A DNA stretch of 63,812 nt, counting the filler, from Folioceros fuciformis (lineage: Eukaryota), in the NCBI GenBank assembly GCA_049999805.1. It is 4 parts of 4 records of this genome, joined end to end, with 100 filler letters (N's around TTAATTAATTAA, not from the genome) between each part and the next. Parts side by side here need not be neighbours in the genome. Positions count along the whole stretch, not along the records: positions 29,273 to 52,699 come from JBNGIO010005798.1; 3 more parts are not named here. One strand, 5' to 3'. Under the pieces are notes generated by a model that saw nothing but the letters and a program-made list of their open reading frames with translations, was not told the origin of the DNA and made no database searches. Both the position numbers and the translations under genes were made by a program. Numbering within the stretch: the first letter of the stretch is position 1; each line of letters opens with the position of its first letter. Below are positions 3,480 through 63,812 of this stretch, in pieces.

Positions 3480-5200
3480 TCTTACCCCATTTGCTTGTAC
3501 GTACCAAGCCCCTCATGTCCAAGATCTTGCTGGGAGGACCATGCTACGATATCCTTTGTATTCATGTTATCAGAAACCTCGCATGCGTCTTCCTGTTCAC
3601 CACATACACGTCGACCAGTACAACCCCCCGCAGTCCTCTTTGAACAGTCTGCGAGTGCGTCTGCCTGCCCTTCAGAGCGAGCACATTCAGCCAAAGAGGA
3701 AAATGCAGTTTCCTCTGGCGTACACACTGGTGCTCCAGGGAGTGGGAGTACTTCATTACTCTCACGGTCGACCATAACAAACTACAACAACCAGGGCCAA
3801 ATCGACGCGCACGTACCGCCTTTCTCTTGCAAAACTGTCTTTTTGCTCCACCCTTGACATTATCTCCGCAACAGTGGAAGGCGCTGCAGAGGCATAGATT
3901 CTTCCGTCACCAGCAGAGATGGACATCCCACTCGGAATGTTCACTACCATCCCCAGGACATCGCTTTGGCCCTCTCGTGAGGATATCACGTTCTCTGCCT
4001 CATTCATCTAAGTGGCCCGCACGCCCACCCAAGGATATCAATCATGCAGGTGTCACGCTCAATGGTAGGTTTGATGCCATAGAATCAGGGTGATTATGAC
4101 CCTCGCCAGCCAGTCTCCCATGAGTGCCTGGGGCTAGAAGGCAAGTTTAGTAGCACCACCAAGCTGAAAGCCGGCAACTAACCTCTCCTCGAAACAAGCT
4201 AGTGCCTCGTGAGCTTGAACACTAGCATCATACCCAGATATTGGAGAATTCTCTGTCACCAATGCTTTGTAGCCATGCTGTAAAAAACGTGGCGTGCATC
4301 TTCCATTGCACCACATGTCCAGCAGTGAGCTGCCCGACACTACGCCTTCTACCAGTAGTGTTCTTTCCACAGCTTCTGAGTGCAGCTGCCTGCCGTCCTG
4401 TTAGGCATCAGTGCTTCCACAGGCATGCAGAAGGCACGAAATAAAGTAACATCGTTAGACATCATCATCCCCAACTCCTCCACTTGTCCATACAGAAGAT
4501 GCGCCTCACGTCAGACCCCTTGGTCTACATACCCAGCAATCGGCACGGTCCATGTCACCACATTCTCTGTGGTCCTGCTGGCCAAGACCTGGCGTGCATC
4601 CTTCATTTCACCGCATTTTGCATACATGTTCATAGCCAGGTGCCGACAGAGAACTCAAGAGGAATGCTACGGGGAAACACATCAGAATGAACTTCTCTAC
4701 CACATTCCAAGCCGGCTGCAAGTGCACAAGCTTGAAGGGCAGCTACAAAGACGTGAAAATCCTCCTTCAATTCTGATCCACGCACCTCATGATACAGTTT
4801 CATGTCCTTGTTAGGTCTCCCAAGCTTGGCATATGCAGAAATTACGGAAACCCTCCTCAGGGCATCTGGTTTACCCACCCCGGTGTAGACATCCATGGCC
4901 TCCTGCACACGAACTCCACATACATAGATAGAGCTCCCCAAGCACGCACACGAATCGGACCCGAGTGTCATGAACTCGTCGTCCCACAACCAGCTCCTTC
5001 TTAGTTGTACACAGTTATATAGCACAGCGTAAAACGGACAGTGAGGCATAGCAGAGTCTATCTGCGCCAGAGATTTCAGGGCCCCGACAGCCTGAGAAAG
5101 CTTCCCCTGCCGATAACGTGCTCACGAATACAACCCCATTTCTGATCCTGCACGCCTTCCAGGTTCAGGCCAATCCAGAGAGGTTGAGTCGGACGGAGAG
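3480..5200 (-). pseudogene. Degenerate PLS-class pentatricopeptide repeat gene
   Basis: Fragments VISAYAKLGRPNKDMKLYHEV...DFHVFVAALQACALAAGLECGREVHSDV, VSGSSLLDMWCNG, ISGYDASVQAHEALACFEE and DACEVSDNMNTKDIVAWS are PPR-like. The frame is broken repeatedly. Confidence 0.7.
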
Positions 5201-17849: not shown

Positions 17850-20467
17850 CTATGAACTAGTTCGGGGTCTTTTCGACAGGCCCGAACACCTGAGTGTTTG
17901 ATCGTATGGCAAATCCCCTTCTACCTCCCCCGCGAACGCAACCTTCTCTGCTAGATCAAAACTGATGCAGAGCATAGTCTGCAAACGAAGAAGACGGGTT
18001 ACAATTTCAGAGAACGGGTGGTTGCATTCAAACCAGGATGGCAGGATGGTCGTTGAGTACCTTGTTCGGCGCAACATCGCGGACAGTCCAGACAGACACC
18101 CGTAGTAAAGGGCCTTGCAAGGTAGTTTCTGCAAGCTGCTCATAACGATCGGATATAAGCGATCAAACAGAAAACTCGAGCACAACTTACCCAAGTTGTT
18201 CAATGGAATGACATGAAAGCTACCTCAATGACATCCGCTACTGTCTGGTTCGATCTTTTGAAGCAGTAGCAATGTACTCGTGGCAGAGAGCCCTTCCAGT
18301 GCTTTGCTGATAATAGTCCCATGAAAACATCTGCACAACTCTATTGGTTCAGTTAGGGCGGTCATGCCTCAAACAGCTGGCACCTCATACACAAACGTGT
18401 CAGGAGTTGTGTATACACAAGACCTAAGAATTCAAGAGCTGAAGCAGGCAGGTTCATGACGACGTGATCAAAATGCTCCCAAGGCTCGCAGGTGCTGCTG
18501 TCATGCACGAAGGGTGTTGTGCTCTTTCCCGTCTTCCGTCTTTTATCAGATGATGCTCCTTTATCTGAGGATTACGATATCCCAGACACACTAAAATTAA
18601 AGACTTCAAACGACAAGTGCCAGTCACTCGAACGCGAGAAAAGCGCAAGTTAATGGGTAGAAGCAAACCCTGGGGCCATACCTTTCTGTTGCTTTGTAAC
18701 CTCTGGATTGGTGCTGCTGGCTATCAGATCAGCAGTCAAACCTGCAGTGCCAGTAGAGTTTGCAACATTTTCAATGGATGGCGTCACATGTTCAGCCACA
18801 CTCAAGGGACCACATCCATCCTTCACATGTTCATCACTCTGATTCTCACCCCCATCCTCATCAATGGGGCAGTTCTCAGAGGAGTGAACCCGGTCAGTGC
18901 TTTTGACTATATGTCTTAGGAAGTGCCGGGCATCCATATTGAATGCATGCACTCGCCCTTCCACTTTATTGAGCTTGGCATTGACTCTAAGGTACTTGAC
19001 ACTAGATGGATTGAGATCATTCGCATATACAATGCACCCCCTTTGTGCGGCTGGGATCGCAAACGGTCCTACTCCTGCAAACATGTCACACACGACCTGC
19101 CCAGACTGGAAGAGACTGGCCAATCGCTTGTGCTCAAACTCTAGCCTGGAATTCCAATACACCAGGCCATAATCCAACCTGAATGTTGCTCCATGTTGCT
19201 TGACTTCAGTAACTAAACTCTTTGTTCCAGCCAGTACCTCAAATTCAGGTACTCGGAACTCATTGCTAATTGTCCCAACCTTGTTCACTACAGTTTTTAT
19301 CTTAGGCTGATTCTTCTGAAAGTCAATCAAAACAAAATAAGTGAGATAAGCACAGGTAGGACGAGCGATGGAGATACAGCAGATCAAGATAGACAGAAAC
19401 ATCCTCGGAGGGAAATTTTGCTGAGTCGTCACTCACATCCAGGAACACTTGGGCAATGATGTTGCGGTAAGGAAGAAGTTCATCCCGCAAATTCAGATGA
19501 GCTATGTGCCCTATTTGCCATGAGTAAAAAGAGTTAGCCCACAGCTAGCATGTGGCACAATCAGCCATGCTTCTTTCCGCTACTATGCAATTCATCTAAG
19601 ACTCTGATTGCTAGCTGGTTCAGATGGCAATTCTTACCAATACATTCAAAGGCTGAGGGCACTTCGCAGCCAGCTGGTAAAATATCCTTCAGGATGTGAT
19701 CTGAAAAACACACTTCCGCCATAAGAAGAGGCCGCTGCGCCTAGAGAACGAATACAATCATTCTGCTGACGACAGTCCTCACGTTCTTCAAATGCTTCGG
19801 AAGTATCTCAGGCATCAAGTTGTATGCACATGGGATCACACCTACAGGCCAGTACGAATAATCCAGCAGCACATCATGCGGAACAATGTCTATCTCCATA
19901 AACTCCTTCAATTGGATCAATTTTTTCTCTGGAAGATCTCGTAGACCTGAAAGAAATACGCCCAGACAAAACTCGTAGTCATGCACTCTTCGTCAGGTGG
20001 AGAACAACATTCTTGAACCAAGGAAAAGGAATTACCTATGCCCTCAGACAGTATGACACGACGAAGAGCCTGGTCAGTGGGGTCTTCAACAATATGCTTA
20101 ATCCTCGGCTTGTCCAATACATGTCTGCACACAGTGGAGATCGTAAGAGGCCAATCAGAGGCAGTCATCCTTTACTGAATGTCAAAATCCAAACCTAGTC
20201 AATATCCACAATGTACAGGGCTGCGTAGAGAAATGTAAGCTCGCCATTTCCAGAAAGAATCCGTTCAAGGTTAGTCTATCTGAATACACTGCTGTAAGAA
20301 GCACGGGCTATGGTACCGAAGCTCTCAAGACTTGCAACTTACTTGGACAAAATTTTGGCTGCCTCCTGAGAGAACCGCTTTGGAACCCGCAGGGCGTACA
20401 GATGCAGAAACGTATCGAACTTGGACTTATCCACCATAGCAACCAACTTTTGATCCAGCTCAACCAT
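17850..20467 (-). CDS. TRM5: tRNA (guanine(37)-N1)-methyltransferase TRM5 (Met-10+ family), multi-exon
   Basis: Motifs [61 protein letters not shown] and MLCISF. Start codon inferred. Confidence 0.92.
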
Positions 20468-29272: not shown

Positions 29273-29273
29273 G

Positions 29274-37210: not shown

Positions 37211-37294
37211 GTCAGGATGGCCGAGTGGTCTAAGGCGCCAGACTCAAGTTCTGGTCTTCGAAAGGGGGCGTGGGTTCAAATCCCACTTCTGACA
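37211..37294 (+). tRNA. tRNA-Leu(CAA)
   Basis: GTCAGGATGGCCGAGTGGTCTAAGGCGCCAGACT-CAA-GTTCTGG, long variable arm, GGTTCAAATCCC T-loop and acceptor stem GTCAGGA/TTCTGAC. A T-run terminator follows shortly downstream. Confidence 0.97.
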
Positions 37295-43967: not shown

Positions 43968-44100
43968 AACTCCTTAGCATCTAAGGAGCCGTTAATTCCA
44001 TCATTGCGCAACCTTAAAAGATTAAAGCCCTAACCTCCTTAGCATCTAAAGGAGCCGTTAATTCCATCATTGAGCACCCTTAAAAAATTGAAGCCCTAAC
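43968..44100. repeat. ~66-bp tandem duplication, each unit starting with a CTCCTTAG-CAT-CTAAGGAG hairpin
   Basis: Two slightly diverged copies seen directly. Confidence 0.85.
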
Positions 44101-44262
44101 CCACTAGCTGGCAATCCGGTGTAAGCGATGCTTTTATCACATACATACATACCAAAGTGTATGTATGTATGTACTCAGAGTCGCGACCTTGGAGCAAGGA
44201 CCCTGGCTCCAGCTCTCGCCGTTCCACAAATGTCATACAAGGCTCCGAGATCTGTATTTCGC

Positions 44263-44285
44263 TAGGGTTTCCCTTGCTAGGGTTT
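44263..44285 (+). promoter_or_regulatory. Two telo-boxes (TAGGGTTT) upstream of NOL6
   Basis: GCTAGGGTTT occurs twice within 100 nt of the ATG. Telo-boxes are established promoter/5'UTR elements of plant ribosome-biogenesis genes. Confidence 0.7.
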
Positions 44286-44360
44286 AAGGCGGGGTTGTAG
44301 ACCCCTTGGCTATTGCCTGTAGCGTTTGGAGCTGCCGCAGCCAGCTCGCTGTGCGAAGGA

Positions 44361-47300
44361 ATGGCGGAGTTCTCCCTGGGTGAGGGGAAAGTCGGGGAAC
44401 TTCTCAGTGAAGTCAGGGTGGATTACACCAAGCTGAAGCCTCTGAACGATGCTGTCGCGGCGCTGCGCGAAGTTCTGCTCAGTTTGCCTGAGCAGCAGGT
44501 ATTTGCCGATGCATTTGGGTATCGGCTTGATCTTTAAAAAGCGTCTTGCAGTTCTGCTAGGTTTTTGTGCCCATTTAAGCCGGCGTGCTCGTAGCAATCC
44601 GTTGGGGTTGTGGTGATTTGCACGTGACTATGAGCACACATATTGACTGTGAACTCTGTATGCCTCTCTTGACTGGCCTGCGGGTCTTGACTTGGTGGCT
44701 TGGATTTCCCCACATTGTCTTGTGATATGGTTGGGATGTCGGGATTGTGTATGTGCGTGTGTGTGTGTTGCCCTGAGGTGGCTTATTCGTCTGGACTAGC
44801 TCTGCCGGTGTGGAAGTCCTGTTCTTGACACTCTGGTATAGTAGTCTAGGTTCTTTAGGCTCTGATTGATTCCGATGCCGTCATACTTCCGCCAGGTTTC
44901 GGCCTCTCTGGCTCAGCAGTTTGTCAAGGACCTGGGGGTGGCAGAAAACAAAGCAAGATTTCAGTTCGCCAAGCCCGAAAGCGTGAACGTTATTGGCAGC
45001 TATGCACTGAAGACAGTCACGAAACCTAACCTGACTGCAGATTTGGCCGTACGAATCCCCAAAGTACTTCTTCATTCCTCCCTGTTTTTGTTTTGTGTTC
45101 ATGCAGATACAGTAGGCTGGGTCCTTTCGTTCTTCTACTGACTTTGAGTGTAACAGTGCTGCTTCGGGGAGAAAGACTATTTGAACCATCGCTATCATGC
45201 AAAGCGAGCCCTTTATCTCACGGTCATCCAGCGACGACTGGAAGCCTGTCAGTTTGTTGCGAGGATTGAGTGCTCGTCTTTGTGTGGCGACTTTAGGAAA
45301 CCAGTTTTGTTAGTGCACTTTGGTGGGTATCCCCAGTCCCTCTGGCTATATTGTACATTTTTGGTGTCTTGCTTTGGGATTTTCTTAATTTTAACATGTC
45401 TTTCTAGTATCCGAAGCAGGTGCTTCTCAAGGGATTGTTGTCAGGGTAGTCCCCACTATTGCAAGCAACGTATTTCTACCGTCCAAGTTGGCACTCGGTC
45501 GGAACAATGTGAGAGATGCGAAATCAGATCGTAAGTGCCTTTCTGCTTTCGAAGGTGGCCCTGCAGTCCTCAACTGCAATAGTGGCCCTCTGTTCATCGG
45601 GCGGGAGACCTCAGCCTGTGGCTTTTTCTTTCTTCTTCTTGACCAATGGTATATGTGATGTATGTTGGCAGGACAGAAGGCCAGGTTCAACCAACCCCTC
45701 ATTATAGTGCGAGTATTCTAGAGGATGCCTTTATCGAAGAACATCAGGATATTCTCAAAGACCTGCTCTCCGGTGCAGATGCTATCCGGGATTTAGTGTG
45801 TTTGCTGAAGGTCTTTGCCTCACGACTTGTCACTCTCTATCTGCCTGATCTCTGTTTTCTCGGACCTAATTCTTGTTCTTCATATATTCTAGGTGTGGTC
45901 AAGGCAAAGAGAATTTCATCTTTCTTATGACGGGGTGTCCAGCTACCTAATGACTTTGCTTGTCGCCCACCTGACTACAACTGCTGGTGGCAAGCGAGTC
46001 AAAAGTCATTTATCGGCATTGCAACTGTTTCGTATTGTGATGGATTCCATTGGTATGACCTTACACCTGGCTGTCCTTTAGTGTACAGTGTTTGGTTTTG
46101 CATTTGTTAACAACTGTTAGGTGATGACAGCCACTTCTGATATTCTGGGGAAGGGTGTTTTCTTGCAATTTGAAGAAGGTCTCCCGGTACCTAATGAGGT
46201 ATTGCTGAGTCGTGTGTTATTCTGTTTCATCTAATGAGGCTTTTGTCCTGTGGCTAACGCATCCTCTTTGTCAGAAACGACGGTTGATGGAGCAATCTTT
46301 TGAGGTTATTATTTGTGATCCCTCTGGAGTATACAACTTTGGGCACAGAGTATCAAAAAGTGCACTGGCTGAGGTGAGCTTTGTTGTATTGACCTTGATG
46401 GATCTCAGCTCCACTGTCTTACCTTTCCTTTGTGTCTCATTTATGTGTTCTCTTCCTTCACAGTTGAAGGAAGCTGCAGCACAGACTCTTGCCATTATGA
46501 GCTCTAGCAGGGACAATGGATTTCATGCAGTGTTTATGACACGCGTCGATTTTGCTGCGAAGTATGATTACCACATAAGGTTGGTGCTGATGTGCTGTTC
46601 ATCTGCTTTTCGTCTTCATAAGTCAAGACATGTTTAAATTTGACGGCGATGGACTAGAGTCACTTTTATGCCGTAACCTAATGGTATACAAAGCGCTGAA
46701 AGTCGCCAAAACTTATGGGTTTAGCTCCTCCTGGTTGTGGGGTTTTATCTCCTGACCTTGGTGTTTATCCGAACACGAATTTGTTGATCACGCCGCAACA
46801 TATCACAAGTGTGTGGGATTCTTAGGCTGTGTCTATGGCGATGGACTAGAGTCACTTGTGTGCCTGGTGTGGTGGCACATAGAGCGCTGAAAATCGCCAA
46901 CACTGTTCAGCTCAGAGATTTGTAGTGTAAAGCTAGTTTATTGCGTTTGCACTGTTTGAAGGCTGTATATTCTGTTATTCCACTCCACGAACCTCTCCTC
47001 CTGAGCTTGCTTAGTAAGAGTCATCTACAAGCTTCTTCACGTAGATTCAACTACAGTCTCAATATGTGGTCCTTGTTTCTCAAGGTCTGGAGAGTCTTGG
47101 TACGTGGTGTCTGTGGCAGTGGACTCGAGTCACTCGTGTGCCCGGTGCGGTCGCAGATAGATAGCTAGAAACCGACCTAACTGGTTATGTAGTAGAGGTG
47201 GAGGGCTTTGGCTCTGTTATTCTGCAGTAAATAGAATTCTATGTGCGTGATCAGATATTATCGTACAGCAGTTGGAAAACCCTAAAACTCGCCGTTGCAC

Positions 47301-50300
47301 ATGAATTGGTGGAATTCCCTTGAGTGGTGTCCTCGGTGGAAGTTTAGAGTTCTGTGTTGAGTCCTGTTGTTTGAATTTTGGTCCCCTTAGGTCGATATAC
47401 TGTGTGTGCGGGCTGTTCCGTATGGAGTGCTTGGGGGGGTGGGTTGTAATTATTGGCAGTTGATTCAATTTCTCGTGTCTCAGGTGGGATGCAGCAAGAA
47501 ATGCTGGATCTAACCCCTCTACTTCGCACTGTCTGGATGAAGAATCCTGGAGAATTCTGGAGCGTCGTTTTGAGTCTGTGCTGTACAGAGCATTACAGGA
47601 TAGAGTTAAGTCTGTCCGGGTGTTGCGAAGAACACTACCTAGTGGATGGGACATGAAAAAGGTCAGTGGTGAGCTTGTATGATTGCTGTAGGCCATCTTG
47701 TGTACATTTGTGTGCAGTCTTGGGCTCATGACAGGTACTTTTTAATCAGGGCCTCTCTCATGTCGACAAGGGTCCACTTTTTGCTGGAGTGATTCTGAGG
47801 GATCTTTCAACTGCTCTACGCATGGCAACGGTTGGGCCAAGTGCGGAGAGGAGTGATGAGGTAATGTTCTTGTGCCTTTGTATGCCATATACTCACCAGT
47901 ATATGGATGTGTTTTGATGATGCTTCTTCACCTTTTAATTTCTTAGTATTTACAGGCTGAAGAGTTTAGGGAATTTTGGGGTAGCAAAGCTGAACTCCGT
48001 CGGTGGCCTGATGGAACCATCACTGAAACTGCAGGTTTGAGCTTAATCGTGCTGTCTCTTAGTTCATAAGCTTGTTTTCGGTAGTTTGCATTGGGCAGGA
48101 CCACAATGAGGAAATATGAATCAACCATAGTGCGGTGTACCTGTCGAGGTTCTGTATGATGTGGTGGAAAACTCGTTGTCTGAGTGGTCTCATGTCTTGT
48201 TTCAGAAAGTTGTGTGCAATTAGGGTCTGGAAATCCGTTTTGACATTGAACCTGCGTGATAACAGCTTGGGAATGCCAACCCTGGCAGAGGCATCTAGTG
48301 ATCAGAAAGATAGTTGAGCATGTGATTACCCGCCATTTAGGAGCAGCTTTGAATGATGTACATGTTGTTGCCGGACAGCTGGATTTCTCTTTGTTGGAGT
48401 CAACAAAAGGTATCAGTTACGTGGTGCTCATTTTCCTTGCAGCGTCATTATGATCTTGCAAATCCTGATGAAGTTTACTGTTTGATAAAAGCAGATTGTA
48501 TGTCTTCAGCTTCGAAGTTGGTTGCGGCCTCAAAGGACTTGTCTGACCGATTGAGGAACTTGGAACAGGTGCCTCTGAAAGTTGTTGCGGTGCACCTTTT
48601 AAGTCCAGGTACGGGATGCGCCTCCTTGAAATGGGTATGGCTGCTAGCGTGGATGTCTGCCTGCTAAAGAATCAGGTATAATCTGACATCAGAACTTTCC
48701 AGCGTTCAGGCAAGCTGCTGTGTTTCCTCCTGAAACACATCCTCTAGCGGACGAAACAGAATCACAAACACCTCCCAAATTCTTACCCCGTTGCTTGGAT
48801 CCTTTGGAGGTTGCAATTGAGGTATGTCAGGTCATGGTTGTTTGCCTGGCATCTGATTTCAATTACTAGAATCTGGAGTGTGGAGTGAACAATGGGTTTG
48901 CCCTGTAGCTTGAAGGATCCGGTAGTTGGCCGGCTGACTTGGGTGCTGTACAAAAGATCAAAATGGTATTTCTCTTAAAGATAGCAGAAAGGTATGATAA
49001 TGTGCTGAGGCTCTCCCTTCGAGCACTTTGGCTGATCCTGAATTTGTGGTCTAACGGTTTTCTTCACCTTGCAGCTTGCAGAGAAGTTGGAGGGTGGCAT
49101 ACACCTTGATCAACAATGCGGTCGATGTCCTTATGCATGGCTTTGCCTTTCGCCTAAGCATCTGTTACGAGAAGGATCCCAGTATACTGGGTAGAACGGT
49201 GGCATTTGGTACAGCATCAGAGGACTACAGTGTGGACTACACCATGAAGCCGGGTGCGTTTGGAGCAGTCCGCCCGAGTGAAGATCTGCTTCTGAAAAGG
49301 TATCACGCGAAGCTGCTGGACAGTCTTCAGGGTTTACACCCAGTCTTTGGGCCCACTGTAAGGTCAGTTTCTACTCTGAGACGTTTTCCTTCGTTGCCTA
49401 TGCTTGGTTCTCCTGTTCCTGGACGCACTTGCACCCACTGGCTCAACCATTCTTTCTTGCATCAGATTAGCGAAACGTTGGGTGGCTGCGCACTTCCTGG
49501 GAACTGCTGTTTGTGATGAAGCAGTGGAGTTGTTAGTTGCTCACCTATTCACGAATCCTTTTCCATTCTCTCCTCCGTCCTCCCGTATCACTGGATTTTT
49601 AAGGTAATCATGGTTAGAGGTGCTTCTGGTCTGTCCCAGGCGGTGTTTGTAGTTTCTTCAGCAGGACATGTCTAGGGGAACATTACTGTTGAACACTCGT
49701 GGAAATTATGTTGATGGAGTCATGTTGCAATGATGAGAACACAGGTAATGTCGATCACGGTCTTCGGACCCGTGAAATGAGGCAAGATTACTGATAGCGG
49801 TTAGCTGAGCAACTCGGTCTTGAGGTGATGGGTTCCTGCTAGATTTGATCTTGTAGTTTGTCCTTGTTGACAAAGGAATCGTGAATGACGGATGCAGGTT
49901 TTTGAACTTACTTGCAACACATGATTGGGATCTTGTGCCCATAGTCGTGGACGTCAACAAAGACTTGTCAGTCAATGACACTGAGAGGATCATGGTACCT
50001 TCCAAGTGCGCTGGACCTGATGTTATTTTTTCAATGAACATGTGATGAAAAAGTCGTTGATTTCCTAGGATGTATGCACTGAGCAGGAGCACTTCGATGC
50101 TTTAAGGTCGGGGGAGAAGCAAGGTGAGCTGAAGGGACCACCGATGTTCATCTGTACCCCATATGATAGAGTCTCGCGAACGTGGACATTTTGTTCTCCT
50201 TCCGCCCGTGTAAGTGTGCCGTAGATGCCGTAGAACTTGTATATTTTCATGTGAACCCTCTAGGCACATTGACAAAACCTAACAGTCTGAAGGGTTTGTG

Positions 50301-51255
50301 TACAGGAATTGAAAAAAATTGTTTCCTATGCGCGAGCCGCGGCCGTACTTCTTGTACGGCTCATTCACAAAGAAGAAGACGTATGGGCGGTAGGGTACTG
50401 AATCATGGTGTTGTGGTTTTCAGGCATGATATTCTTCCTGGATCCTGACTTCATTGTTGTCTACTCTGTGTAGTCTTTGTTCCGAACACCTCTCAATTGC
50501 TATGATGCAGTAATACATCTGCATCACGAGAGTTTGCCTCACCCTGGTCGTGTCCTCTTCAAAAACGATGTCTGGATGCAAGGTGTGTAGAGTGATCCTA
50601 ATTTTTGTTTTGCGATTGTGCTGAGGAGACTCTGACGACTTGCAATCTCGGTTGATGCAGGAACTGTGTGCGAGGACCCGAGGCCTGAGCTTATTGGGCA
50701 CTTGTCAAAATCCGTTGTAAAGCTCGGAGCAAACAGGTTGCGAAGTCAACTACTTGTTGGGTTTGACCCGATATCGTGCTTTGTCAGAGATCTGAAGGTA
50801 CCATTGTGCTAAGGTTCTTTCCGTATGTTTTTCACTGTGGCAAGGCTTTTATTTTGAATTGAATTGGTATGAATTCAGGTCAAGTTTGCGAACATTACCG
50901 TTTTCTATGATCTGTTGGGTGGGAGCGATGTTGTGTGCTTGACTATGGAAAACCTCACGGTAAGTTTGACCTCATCGCTTGACTGTCACTTTTGCTGAAT
51001 CAACTTGAATTTGGGGGGTTATTATGACGCTCGTTTTTTGGAACCCTTGATCGGGTTACGCAGCTGAAGCGTTTGAAGGACTCGGAGAGGAACACGCTTT
51101 CGAGGAACGGCGCGGTGGGGGGCATCACCCGGAAATTTAAAGAAGACGAAACGCCAGAGTTAGACGTGCGAAGTGTAGTGTCAGCCATCTGTGAAGTGGG
51201 ACAAGGCCTTGTGAAAAGTGTCCAGCTCGTAGAAGATGCTCGAAAGGTCTTTTGA
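44361..51255 (+). CDS. NOL6: Nucleolar protein 6 (Nrap/Utp22), many exons
   Basis: VIGSYALKTVTKPNLTADLAVRIPK, EKDYLNHRYHAKRALYL, PTPHYSASILED, FWGSKAELRRWPDGTITE, LEGSGSWP, VDVLMHGFAFRL, PTVRLAKRWV and LVGFDP in consistent GT-AG exons. Confidence 0.93.
46645..46713 (+). ncRNA. Candidate intronic guide-RNA hairpin copy 1 (H/ACA-like; antisense to 25S rRNA UGACUCUAGUCC)
   Basis: GGCGAT/GTCGCC lower stem, GGACTAGAGTCA antisense element, and upper stem CTTTTATGCCG/TGGTATACAAAG. Confidence 0.55.
46836..46905 (+). ncRNA. Candidate intronic guide-RNA hairpin copy 2 with ACA box
   Basis: TGGCGAT/ATCGCCA lower stem, identical 12-nt antisense element, upper stem GTGTGCC/GGCACAT, and ACA (46900-46902) 14 nt after the start of the 3' pocket strand. 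Confidence 0.65.
47114..47180 (+). ncRNA. Degenerate third copy of the same hairpin
   Basis: TGGCAGTGGACTCGAGTCACTCGTGTGCCCGGTGCGGTCGCAGATAGA aligns to copy 2, with substitutions that break the stems. Confidence 0.45.
48099..48189 (+). ncRNA. Candidate intronic box C/D snoRNA 1
   Basis: Perfect 6-bp terminal stem GACCAC/GTGGTC closing box C-like ATGAGGA and box D CTGA, with internal C'-like ATGATGT. Lies in intron 48035-48265. Confidence 0.7.
49724..49813 (+). ncRNA. Candidate intronic box C/D snoRNA 2
   Basis: Terminal stem GTTGC/GCAAC, perfect box C ATGATGA and box D CTGA; D' TCGA and C' ATGAGG flank a cUUCGg-capped hairpin. Lies in intron 49604-49897. Confidence 0.8.
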
Positions 51256-51793
51256 TGTTTTCTATTGGTTCCGATTTTTTGGTACCTGCATTAGTTACGA
51301 CGTGTGCGTCTCTTTTGGTGACGACATCGAGAATATAGGCACTGTACCTCCTGATGGATGGCGGATAGAGGAGGGTGAAGGTGGGCTGTGACAACTGTAG
51401 AGTCCCCGGGCCTGACGTACGCGATTATGATAACGTGACGGTCAACTCTGCTGTGTACAATTCGATAATGTTGCGGATGGGATGTTCCCACGTGCCTGTG
51501 ACGTGGATGAGAACTTGTACTATGATGTACATCCGAGTGCTTTATCACGGACGTATCTTCGATTTGACAGTGCTCCTCGTGGATTCCCAATCTGAGTGGT
51601 TTTGTAGTATCCTATGCTTTCAGAACACCAATCCAAAAGAAATCTGGTTCTTCCAAATCGTTCCAAGACCATCCTATCCTCTCTGCGCATGATAGATTTG
51701 TTTCCAGAGCATTCCAAGAGCATTCATACAGGTTTATCCAAGAGCGTTCTTGCACCAGTATCCTTTCATTTTGTTTTTTTTTCCCTCCTTACA

Positions 51794-61058: not shown

Positions 61059-63812
61059 AGTCTGGCTATTAAATGTTAAACCTAACTATTCACGCATTTT
61101 CCACACTCCCACTTAGCCAGAACTTCGTTAATTCTTCATGTCTCGCCGGGTTTCGATCTGCAGCTAGGGTTTTCGCTTGCGCTTACTGCCGCCGCCATGG
61201 ATTCCTCTGCTGATGGCCAGGTTTTGGTCGCTTGCGTGATGTTGCTGGTCATCGTGCTGGTTGTTCTTGAGCTCCGTCGGCGGAGACCCTGCTCCTTGTG
61301 CGTTGAGTTTGCAAATTTGTACACTGCTGAGGCTGAACTGGAGGCCGCGTACGCTCGTTGGAAGCGCCTTCAGGGATTTCCTCAGCTAGCACCAGATGCG
61401 TCCTTCAGAATGCTGCCCAATTGTATGGACTGCTTCTTGTACGCCGGATCAGACTTCACAGACGAGGGGCGGCTCATTCTTCGCTATGATGCGCCGCCAC
61501 AGGCTTCTGCAAGGTACTTGCTGCTGGTTTTCCTCCTGTTTTGGTGAAGTCCTGACCTTTTTCCGCCTTGCGCAGAACCCTGGTACTTGTGCTCCACAAA
61601 GATGCCAACTCGCCGCTTTCAGAGCAGCTAGCTTGCAGTCCTGAAGGTATACATGAAGTCCTTGCAAGTGCTGACCTCGTGGGATGGTTTCTTGGTGCTA
61701 TTTTCCTACTACCAGGCCTAGTGCTCTACAGAAGCTGTCGTGTTTTTCTTTTGCTAAGGCTTTGGTTAGCAGGTCCGACACATTGTCGTTGGTAGGCACA
61801 TACTGTAAAGTAGCCTGCCCATTTAGTAGCACCTGTCTAATGAAGTGATGCTTCACTTCTATGTGTTTAGTTCTAGCATGCATGATAGGATTCTGTGCTA
61901 ATGCTATAGCGGACTGATTATCACACAGTAAGAGCGTGGGTGCAGTTTGGTTTTCACCTAGTGAGGAGAGCAGCTCCCTTGCATATACAATGTCTTGGGC
62001 AGCAGTAGCTGTAGCAGCGTACTCTGCCTCTGTTGATGATAGGGCCACAACTTGCTGTTTCTTGGAATGCCAGGAAACTACTGTGGCCTCATATTCATGG
62101 GCTCCCAGTAGAAGGCAATTGGCAGAGATGGACCTGCGTGTGTCAGCATCTGCTGCCCAGTCAGCATCGCAGAAGCATGTCAGGAGCAGGTTCTTTGGCC
62201 TTTGCCTATACAGCAGTCCAAGCCTCAGCGTACCCTTCAGGTACCTCATCACTCTCTGCACTACTGCCCAATGAGCTTGTCCATAGCATGTCAAGAATTG
62301 AGATGTTACTCCCACTGCGTAGGACAAGTCAGGCCTCGTCCAGTTCCTGCAATAGATGAGCGAGCACACTGCTGACCTGTACGGGATGCTTTCCATCTGC
62401 CGTCTCTCCATTTCTGTTTTAGGTGCCTGCTCAACACTCAATTTTTCTCCAACAGCCATTGGCGTTGCAGCAGGTTTGCACTCTGACATTTTGTATCTGG
62501 CTAGTACTTGACTGATGTACTGAGCCTGATGTATGTGGATGGTGTGTTGTGACATGTCTTGCAGGATCTCAATGCCAAGGAACCATGTGAGTTTCCCCAA
62601 GTCTGTCATGGAGAACTCAGAGGTGAGTATAGATTTCACCTTGGTCATTATATTCGGGTTACTCGCAATAAGTACAGCATCATCCACATAGAGTGCCAGG
62701 AAGACAACTCCGTCTTTGTCCTCCAACTTGTACACATTTGAGTCCGATTCTGATTGGAGGAAACCTGACTGTTTGAGGTATGTATCAATGCGTTTGTACC
62801 AGGCTCGAGGGGACTGCTTCAGTCCATAGATGGTTTTTATGAGCCTGCATACCTTTCCTGGCTGCTTAGCATCTACAAAACCCTCAGGCTGACTCATAAA
62901 AATTGTTTCCTCCAGGTTCCCGTTTAAGAATGCAGTTTTTACGTCCATGTGTTCCATGGCGTAGTCTCTTTGTGCTGCAATTGCGAACAGGGTGCGAACT
63001 GAAGTTGCCCTGACAACTGGTGAGAAGGTTTCTGTATAGTCCAGGCCTTCCACCTGGCTATACCCTCTTGCTACAAGTCGAGCTTTAAATCTTGCTATAC
63101 TTCCGTCAGCTGCAAGCTTTTTCTTAAATACCCACTTGCAGGTTACAGGTTTCCTGCCAGCAGGTAGGTCCACCAATTCCCATGTCCCATTATCTAATAG
63201 AGACTGGTACTCAGATGCAATTGCTGCATTCCATTTTTCAGCTTCAGGTCCACTAACTGCTTCTCTGTATGACTGTGGCTCGTACAGGTTGCCCGGCTCA
63301 CTATCATCCTGCACCAGGAAGGAACTGTATGTGAGACGTGGTTCAAACCATTCGTCAGGTGAGGCAGTATGCCTCCTGCTGCTCCGTCTTGGACCTTCAG
63401 GTTCTGGAGCTGACTCCACCACCACTTCAGAAGACTGCCCTTGTTCAGTCTGTGATTCGGCAGCCTCGTGATGACTGCCTGCATGAGAACCCTCTGTATC
63501 CTCAGCATCTTCATTGTCAGCCGGTGTTTCAGTTTGGGTGTCATAGGATGATTCTCCCTCTTCATCATCTGGGAAAACACTTGCTGACAAGTTTCCAACT
63601 GCAGCAGGTATGTGCACATGCTGCGTTGTAGTTGTTGTGTGCTGGAGGGTTTCCTCACTGGTTTCTCCTTCTGACACCTCGCTTGTGGAGGCCTCTTGTG
63701 CAGGAATCCGCTCTGTGAGCTCAGGTTGAGGTGCGAGCAGTGACAACTCATCAAACACCACACTCCGACAGTGTGTTACGCTCCTGGTACTGGGGTCCAT
63801 CAGTTTGTACCC
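61059..63812 (-). mobile_element. Ty1/copia element C: uninterrupted RT-RNase H frame (61698 to window end), PPT 61106-61114, start of 3' LTR at 61105
   Basis: 700-aa open frame with KARLVARGYSQ, MDVKTAFLNG, YGLKQSPRAW, LYVDD, CDADWA and HARTKHIEVKHHF; PPT AAGTGGGAG followed by TG. Confidence 0.95.
61197..61547 (+). CDS. Antisense extra ORF of copia element C: 116-aa putative membrane protein
   Basis: Start context GCCGCCGCCATGG; N-terminal hydrophobic helix followed by RRRR, two CxxC pairs and a hydrophobic C-terminus. Lies wholly between the pol stop and the PPT. Confidence 0.45.
   Translation: MDSSADGQVLVACVMLLVIVLVVLELRRRRPCSLCVEFANLYTAEAELEAAYARWKRLQGFPQLAPDASFRMLPNCMDCFLYAGSDFTDEGRLILRYDAPPQASARYLLLVFLLFW

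Follow-up and report, generated by a model that had tools for sequence, protein, structure and literature searches.

The window analysed here is a stretch of 63,812 nucleotides (nt), filler included, from Folioceros fuciformis (GenBank assembly GCA_049999805.1), made up of four parts of four records joined end to end; all coordinates below count along this window. Positions 29,273 to 52,699 derive from record JBNGIO010005798.1 and contain, on the plus strand, a protein-coding gene of the NOL6/Nrap/Utp22 type, four introns of which are conspicuously longer than the remainder. A first-pass annotation of the sequence had put this gene forward as a host of multiple small nucleolar RNAs (snoRNAs), with a structured RNA candidate in each of the oversized introns. 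Here we analyze the gene model, the RNA candidates embedded in its long introns and their predicted targets in ribosomal RNA (rRNA). The features under study are collected in Table 1.

Table 1. Coordinates of the NOL6 host gene and of the features analysed in and around its introns (z, folding z-score; MFE, minimum free energy).
Feature	Coordinates	Strand	Remarks
Nrap/NOL6 (Utp22-like) protein-coding host gene	44361..51255	+	ATG to stop, 25 exons, 24 introns
Two telo-box-like 8-mers, TAGGGTTT on the + strand	44263..44285 (starts 44263, 44278)		5' end of NOL6 transcript
Intron 1, 397 nt	44499..44895	+	long; embedded RNA not supported
Copy C1, C/D-like element	46645..46709	+	intron 9; MFE -20.8, z -2.6
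Copy C2, C/D-like element	46837..46901	+	intron 9; MFE -25.7, z -2.1
Copy C3, degenerate	47115..47178	+	intron 9; 3 mismatches in 16, z -0.3
Candidate B, predicted box C/D snoRNA, 93 nt	48098..48190	+	intron 12; orphan so far
Candidate A, predicted canonical box C/D snoRNA, 90 nt	49724..49813	+	intron 18; resembles snoR128/129

The identity of the host gene as NOL6/Nrap/Utp22 stands, because the translations of single exons match Nrap domains in Pfam, namely Nrap domain 1 (E = 8.8e-13), Nrap_D2 (E = 1.2e-7), Nrap_D4 (E = 4e-4) and Nrap_D5 (E = 1.2e-14). The RNA data consist of the contigs of one sequencing run, X1 (taken to be RNA by guess), over positions 44200-51400, where four records, all at least 99% alike, were obtained. 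That X1 holds complementary DNA follows from the presence among these records of a 3643-nt, fully spliced NOL6 contig (at least 99% identity), which has its 5' end at 44273 and GT..AG joints (15 of them listed, with nine further joints). The listed joints skip 397, 904 (46580-47483) and 231 nt (48035-48265), corresponding to introns 1, 9 and 12, and all of them are GT..AG; the 294-nt intron 18 (49604-49897), also GT..AG, was fixed by depth and record arithmetic on the X1 contigs. The four lengths are exactly those reported at first, and the accompanying statement that most introns are short (about 70-150 nt) is borne out within this gene, where the remaining 20 of the 24 introns measure 76-146 nt and the median over all 24 is 92.5 nt. 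In the spliced contig, introns 3, 4 and 19 are 97, 141 and 92 nt long, respectively.

Intron 4 (45531-45676) has two acceptors located 5 nt apart. The acceptor at 45671, which is used by the X1 contig and defines the 141-nt intron, shifts the reading frame, such that the open reading frame stops after 210 amino acids; the acceptor at 45676 (146-nt intron) preserves the Pfam-supported Nrap frame and yields an open reading frame of 1078 amino acids. The use of the acceptor at 45671 may reflect an unproductive isoform or merely the assembler's choice. Outside the gene, a direct repeat of about 35 nt lies just 5' of NOL6 (approximately 44001-44037 and 44066-44102), each copy ending with AGCCCTAACC, and a run of N, taken as an assembly gap, is found 3' of the gene at approximately 52.7-52.8 kb. 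Telo-box-like 8-mers occur five times on both strands of the whole window, and two of these five are those at the NOL6 transcript start.

Box C/D RNAs direct the modification of rRNA or small nuclear RNA through a guide of about ten or more bases that adjoins the D or D' box and whose fifth position faces the base to be modified. The candidates considered here are intron-encoded: introns 9, 12 and 18 are spliced from the transcript, and the RNA candidates lie within them on the sense strand. Candidate A, in intron 18, presents the three elements expected of a box C/D snoRNA (a C box of the form RUGAUGA, a CUGA D box and a short terminal stem), with C box AUGAUGA at 49730-49736, D box CUGA at 49805-49808 and a 5-bp terminal stem GUUGC/GCAAC. 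Its 3' end is separated from the 3' splice site by 84 nt. The Rfam family RF01428 (snoR128) aligns with candidate A end to end at 31.5 bits, for a gathering threshold of 40, with an E of 0.11 in a 6.1-kb search and of 1.1 over the whole window, and this is the best match in the window to any Rfam family other than transfer RNA (tRNA). Beyond the boxes and the stem, the main block common to candidate A and the snoR128 consensus consists of the eight bases AGCGGUUA, located directly 5' of the D box. The Rfam search suggested in the first-pass annotation thus provides a subthreshold family match for candidate A, and no match at or above threshold in any NOL6 intron.

Targets were mapped on proxy ribosomal DNA (rDNA) loci, that is, metagenome contigs found by a plant internal transcribed spacer primer pattern, with the small-subunit and large-subunit (LSU) rRNAs mapped in three of them. 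An energy-based scan of guide duplexes against three proxy rRNAs is too permissive to inform, and we rely instead on contiguous complementarity and on its register relative to the methylated bases known in Arabidopsis 25S rRNA. Those bases, and the guides assigned to them, are taken from published assignments (PMC8053127).

On the proxy LSU rRNAs, the guide of candidate A forms seven contiguous pairs with UAACCGC and, after a one-base bulge on the guide side, five further pairs with AUCAG, yielding duplex energies of -17.4 and -18.1 kcal/mol in two proxy loci that carry AUCAGG. The LSU motif UAACCGCA(U/G)C(A/C)GG is present in six proxy loci. Guide position 5 falls opposite the first C of UAACCGC, which is the equivalent of Arabidopsis C1847. 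This register was tested on five known sites of Arabidopsis 25S rRNA (C1847, C1850, G1855, C1860 and U1892). Setting the first C as C1847 reproduces all five methylated bases in five of the six loci, and four of the five in the sixth, while other shifts around this register reproduce at most three. In Arabidopsis, the guides assigned to C1847 are SnoR128-129, whose duplex with the target has one bulged base, and the assignment has been validated for SnoR129 (PMC8053127). On account of the guide core that it shares with snoR128, we call candidate A snoR128/129-like by target, and we read it as the SnoR128/129 counterpart by predicted target, not as a scored member of the family.

Candidate B, in intron 12, likewise combines both boxes with a terminal stem. 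Its C box reads AUGAGGA (48106-48112) and its D box CUGA (48180-48183), and the stem GGACCAC/GUGGUCU comprises six Watson-Crick pairs and one G-U pair; internally, the motifs UGAUGU and CUGU resemble C' and D' boxes. The 3' end lies 75 nt before the 3' splice site, so that of the two distances initially given for C/D candidates, 76 and 84 nt, the second is exact and the first is off by one. No Rfam family matches candidate B at E values up to 10. Its best rRNA match consists of seven pairs, including one G-U, at UUAACGAG, where position 5 corresponds to C2323, a base that adjoins the known site A2322 and is itself absent from the Arabidopsis site list.

The 904-nt intron 9, for which a stem-loop followed by ACA had been claimed, holds not an H/ACA RNA but three direct tandem copies of a C/D-like element of about 65 nt (0.51 such copies are expected in the window, where three occur). 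Copy C1 comprises a six-pair terminal stem, GCGAUGG as a variant C box, the guide GGACUAGAGUCA, a D'-like CUUU, an internal hairpin and, as its D box, CUGA; the terminal stem of C1 and C2 can be written as GGCGAU/(G or A)UCGCC. The first 21 nt of C1 and C2, encompassing box and guide, are identical, and the D box and the 3' strand of the stem are nearly so, the single G-to-A change in the 3' stem strand of C2 keeping the pair. The middle hairpin of C2 has diverged from that of C1 and yet pairs, through the replacement of an A-U by a G-C pair, which involves a change on both sides, and of a G-U by a G-C pair. Copy C3 has lost all C/D-like features together: its box reads GCAGUGG and its D box CUAG, the guide contains an A-to-C change, the terminal stem is gone and the fold is no better than chance. 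Given that box, guide, D box and stem are conserved between C1 and C2 and that the pairing of the middle is kept through a two-sided change, the conservation pattern of these two copies is, as far as sequence comparison goes, one of selection rather than decay.

The 12-base guide GGACUAGAGUCA forms 12 Watson-Crick pairs with the LSU sequence UGACUCUAGUCC in four proxy loci (L001, L007, L026 and L094). When the fifth base of UGACUCUAGUCC is set as U2422, 11 of the 12 methylated bases known in Arabidopsis between 2322 and 2494 are reproduced, and 12 other shifts around this register reproduce at most seven. If the CUUU or CUUG adjoining the guide is read as a degenerate D' box, the U2422 equivalent lies opposite position 5 of C1 and C2, and both copies then combine a D box and a terminal stem with a known methylated base at position 5 on the proxy LSU. 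None of the three copies matches an Rfam family at E values up to 10, and no guide for C2366 is seen in C1-C3 on reading their sequence. Elsewhere in the intron, a telo-box-like 8-mer is located at 47277-47284, 99 nt after C3. The 8-mer UGGACUAG of the guide region also occurs in intron 1 (44790-44810), and a 23-nt stretch of intron 1 (44815-44837) is 74% like positions 47360-47382 of intron 9; these short similarities between the two introns are probably due to chance.

Sequence from intron 9 is also present among the X1 contigs. One record (46654-47014, 361 nt, word depth 7.6) covers most of C1 and all of C2, and another (47052-47253, 202 nt, depth 3.2) covers C3; the spliced NOL6 messenger RNA contig has a depth of 54.7. 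The two intron 9 contigs extend past the copies, which suggests a precursor or unspliced origin rather than mature RNAs. Contig cover is absent from introns 1 and 12, from the 20 short introns and from the 5' part of intron 18, and this absence was not used as evidence.

Taken together, these results make it probable that NOL6 hosts intronic box C/D guides in three introns, with the SnoR128/129 counterpart in intron 18, an orphan in intron 12 and a tandem array in intron 9, and that intron 1 is just long. The multi-snoRNA host proposal thereby holds for three of the four long introns and finds no support in the remaining one. A number of observations weigh against this interpretation. Candidate A is not a scored member of RF01428, since its 31.5 bits fall below the threshold of 40, the corresponding E reaches 1.1 at window scale, and its duplex comprises only seven contiguous pairs before the bulge. 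The C box of candidate B deviates at one position (position 5), and no convincing rRNA target is found for this RNA among 109 proxy rDNA loci. Copies C1 and C2 contain no canonical C box, their sole C-like motif, GCGAUGG, deviating at positions 2 and 7, and the three bases that separate CUGA from the six-pair stem mean that no standard kink-turn can be drawn for them; it is for both reasons that we name them C/D-like. Moreover, CUUU was chosen as their D' box after the duplex was known, and all targets were mapped on metagenomic proxy rDNAs of unknown organisms, not on F. fuciformis rRNA. Antisense 11-mers to conserved rDNA words are frequent in the window (148 on the plus strand, or about 2.3 per kb; scan counts of 148 and 134), which makes rDNA complementarity alone weak evidence, and a window-wide scan of such 11-mers for new guides was rejected for its high background. 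Mapping RNA to the introns, which had been suggested as a check, recovers intron 9 sequence in X1 contigs but reveals no species of mature size, the intron 9 contigs overrunning the copies. The fourth X1 record was placed in 49743-49983, in the 3' part of intron 18, by depth arithmetic only, and seems to start inside candidate A.

Several of these points would be accommodated if only candidates A and B were functional and the intron 9 array were a decaying duplication that forms no C/D particle, its contigs being remnants of the intron or of pre-messenger RNA. We consider this explanation unlikely, albeit a serious contender. The non-canonical C box of all three copies, the missing kink-turn, the degeneracy of C3, the extension of the contigs well past the copies, the lack of an Rfam match and the frequency of chance antisense matches to rDNA are all to be expected from decay. 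What decay does not predict is that C1 and C2 should remain identical over their first 21 nt and nearly so over the D box and stem, that their middle should diverge with its pairing kept by a two-sided change, or that position 5 of a 12-base guide should coincide exactly with a methylation site that is known and conserved. In view of the caveats listed above, there are moderate odds that the intron 9 copies act as functional methylation guides. A more specific proposal, which we hold to be quite unlikely, is that they constitute a functional, compact (about 65 nt), single-guide C/D variant that dispenses with the canonical C box and kink-turn, assembles through a GAUG/CUGA core and a six-pair clamp, has been tandem-amplified within a ribosome-biogenesis host, and replaces the canonical SnoR37-type guide for the conserved Um2422 site in this lineage.

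The broader proposal that all four long introns hold structured RNAs, those of the 397- and 904-nt introns being H/ACA snoRNAs, appears very unlikely. Its best evidence is a 71-nt hairpin in intron 1 (44567-44637, z -1.8) that is followed by ACA, together with a weak second hairpin followed by ACA at 44712 and a weak Rfam alignment to snoR100 (44611-44717), the sole H/ACA family match, which coincides with the hairpin site. Yet the second hairpin has a z of +0.3, no ANANNA box lies between the two hairpins, the folding of the entire region does not surpass that of shuffled sequences (z +1.0), and the snoR100 alignment reaches 18.4 bits against a threshold of 50, with an E of 5.9. A strict scan for H/ACA architecture (hairpin, H box ANANNA, hairpin and ACA three bases from the 3' end) yields zero candidates in the four long introns, and when 15 ACA positions of introns 1 and 9 were examined, nine had some upstream hairpin and none had an H box and a second hairpin. 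The stem-loops followed by ACA that had been described in these two introns are hence not above chance, and an antisense 11-mer match in intron 1 (44615-44625) is also at chance level. We regard intron 1 as merely long, so that the claim of a structured RNA in each long intron is sustained by the C/D candidates of introns 12 and 18 and the C/D-like array of intron 9, and finds no support for intron 1.

It could also be argued that every motif described here arose by chance and that the length of the four introns has another origin, for example first-intron length or a local duplication. We scanned both strands of the window for C/D motifs, allowing a single deviation in the C box and asking for CUGA 45-135 nt further 3' and for a neighbouring stem with five or more Watson-Crick pairs. 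Five motifs are returned, compared with 2.0 on average and five at most over 30 dinucleotide shuffles, so about two C/D-like motifs per window are to be expected by chance, and the snoR128 match is below threshold. However, two of the five motifs, candidates A and B, fall in the introns of NOL6, where about 0.06 are expected given that these introns account for 3,658 of the 127,624 scanned bases (2.9%); both are well formed and lie in long introns on the sense strand. In candidate A as well as in the C copies, a known methylated site lies opposite guide position 5, and the conservation pattern among the three copies adds to the case against chance, an explanation that we regard as extremely improbable. 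The other C/D-like matches, all on the minus strand, are located at 18729-18837, 63211-63310 and 4408-4468, the first of them with a perfect GUGAUGA, a CUGA and a six-pair stem; with about two such motifs per window attributable to chance, some may be real snoRNAs in other genes. At the gathering threshold, Rfam identifies only tRNA in the window, with a tRNA gene at 37211-37294 (+) that scores 59.2 bits and has a long variable arm and an anticodon loop CAA as read from the alignment.

The interpretation that NOL6 hosts C/D guides in introns 9, 12 and 18 lends itself to a simple mechanistic outline. The analysis establishes the gene identity, the splicing, the motifs, the guide-target complementarity on proxy rRNAs and the occurrence of intron 9 sequence in RNA contigs; the accumulation of mature RNAs, protein binding and methylation are inferred. 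The RNA of intron 18 would guide 2'-O-methylation at the 25S cytidine that corresponds to C1847 of Arabidopsis, and the two intact guides of intron 9 would guide methylation at the SnoR37 site, the 25S uridine corresponding to U2422; their array would have arisen by local duplication, and its third copy is decayed. NOL6/Utp22 acts on the small-subunit (18S) side of ribosome assembly. Both mapped guides aim at 25S rRNA and not at the 18S pathway of their host, so the link between host and guides is one of general co-expression, and the proposed pairing of a 90S factor with its own guide RNAs is not supported beyond that. Once the intron has been excised and debranched, exonucleases would trim it back to the bound C/D proteins and so release candidates A and B; the intron 9 array would additionally require endonucleases to cut between the copies, as they do in plant polycistronic clusters (PMC5122169, PMC7671301).

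Under the same interpretation, Nrap/NOL6 would be added to the known snoRNA hosts, from a seed-free-plant-like genome. The arrangement would support the long-known idea that guide RNAs placed in the introns of ribosome-biogenesis genes tie their supply to ribosome production, and leaves current understanding unchanged. A single gene would here combine a plant-style arrangement, with a tandem array in an intron, and an animal-style arrangement, with one RNA per intron at a fixed distance from the 3' splice site, a mixture that could help to ask how early-diverging plants process intronic snoRNAs. For annotation purposes, it would account for three oversized NOL6 introns and flag RNA genes missed by gene finders. 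We found no report of NOL6/Nrap as a snoRNA host in a literature search that left supplementary host lists aside.

Comparison with known systems places the individual elements in context. Candidate A is like Arabidopsis SnoR128 and SnoR129, which guide 25S Cm1847, in its C/D architecture, its length of about 90 nt and its core AGCGGUUA directly upstream of the D box, as well as in its predicted target cytidine and bulge-interrupted duplex (PMC8053127). It differs from them in that the bulge lies on the guide side and not at the target's A1851, and from snoR128 in its subthreshold score (31.5 vs 40 bits), its unrelated internal part and its intronic location in NOL6. Copies C1 and C2 are likened to SnoR37 by their predicted target, the U2422 equivalent, a site that is guided by snR78 in yeast. 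SnoR37 is the Arabidopsis guide for both C2366 and U2422 of 25S rRNA (PMC8053127) and figures among the seven C/D families whose conservation in land plants has been reported (PMC5122169). Unlike SnoR37, C1 and C2 show no C2366 guide, are short (about 65 nt) and carry a variant C box.

In their layout, candidates A and B resemble vertebrate intronic C/D snoRNAs, each intron containing one RNA on the sense strand, which ends 84 nt (A) or 75 nt (B) ahead of the 3' splice site. The optimum for splicing-dependent vertebrate C/D snoRNAs is about 70-80 nt before the 3' splice site, and vertebrate introns are generally free of snoRNA arrays. NOL6 departs from vertebrate C/D hosts in the array of its intron 9. 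In plants, snoRNA processing has been described as splicing-independent (in a title cited in PMC5122169), and tandem snoRNAs within one intron are documented in Arabidopsis, with snoR155a/b/c in intron 2 of RPL23A (PMC2875012) and snoR100a/b/c in an intron of At5g08180. Intronic snoRNA clusters are frequent in rice (PMC3022908) and also known in Chlamydomonas, and in Ostreococcus tauri two or three snoRNAs can occupy consecutive introns of one host, 33% of the intronic snoRNAs described sitting in ribosome-biogenesis genes (PMC7671301). Telo boxes, in turn, have been reported from the promoters of ribosome-biogenesis genes and from those of genes that harbour intronic snoRNA clusters (PMC3022908). 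The NOL6 locus is like green-lineage intronic clusters in its tandem variants within a single intron and in having several introns of one host each with a snoRNA candidate, and like green-lineage hosts in being a ribosome-biogenesis gene with telo boxes at its promoter. The green lineage already offers known cases of ribosome-biogenesis genes with intronic snoRNAs and intronic clusters, and the only mildly unusual part of the NOL6 arrangement is its variant-box array.

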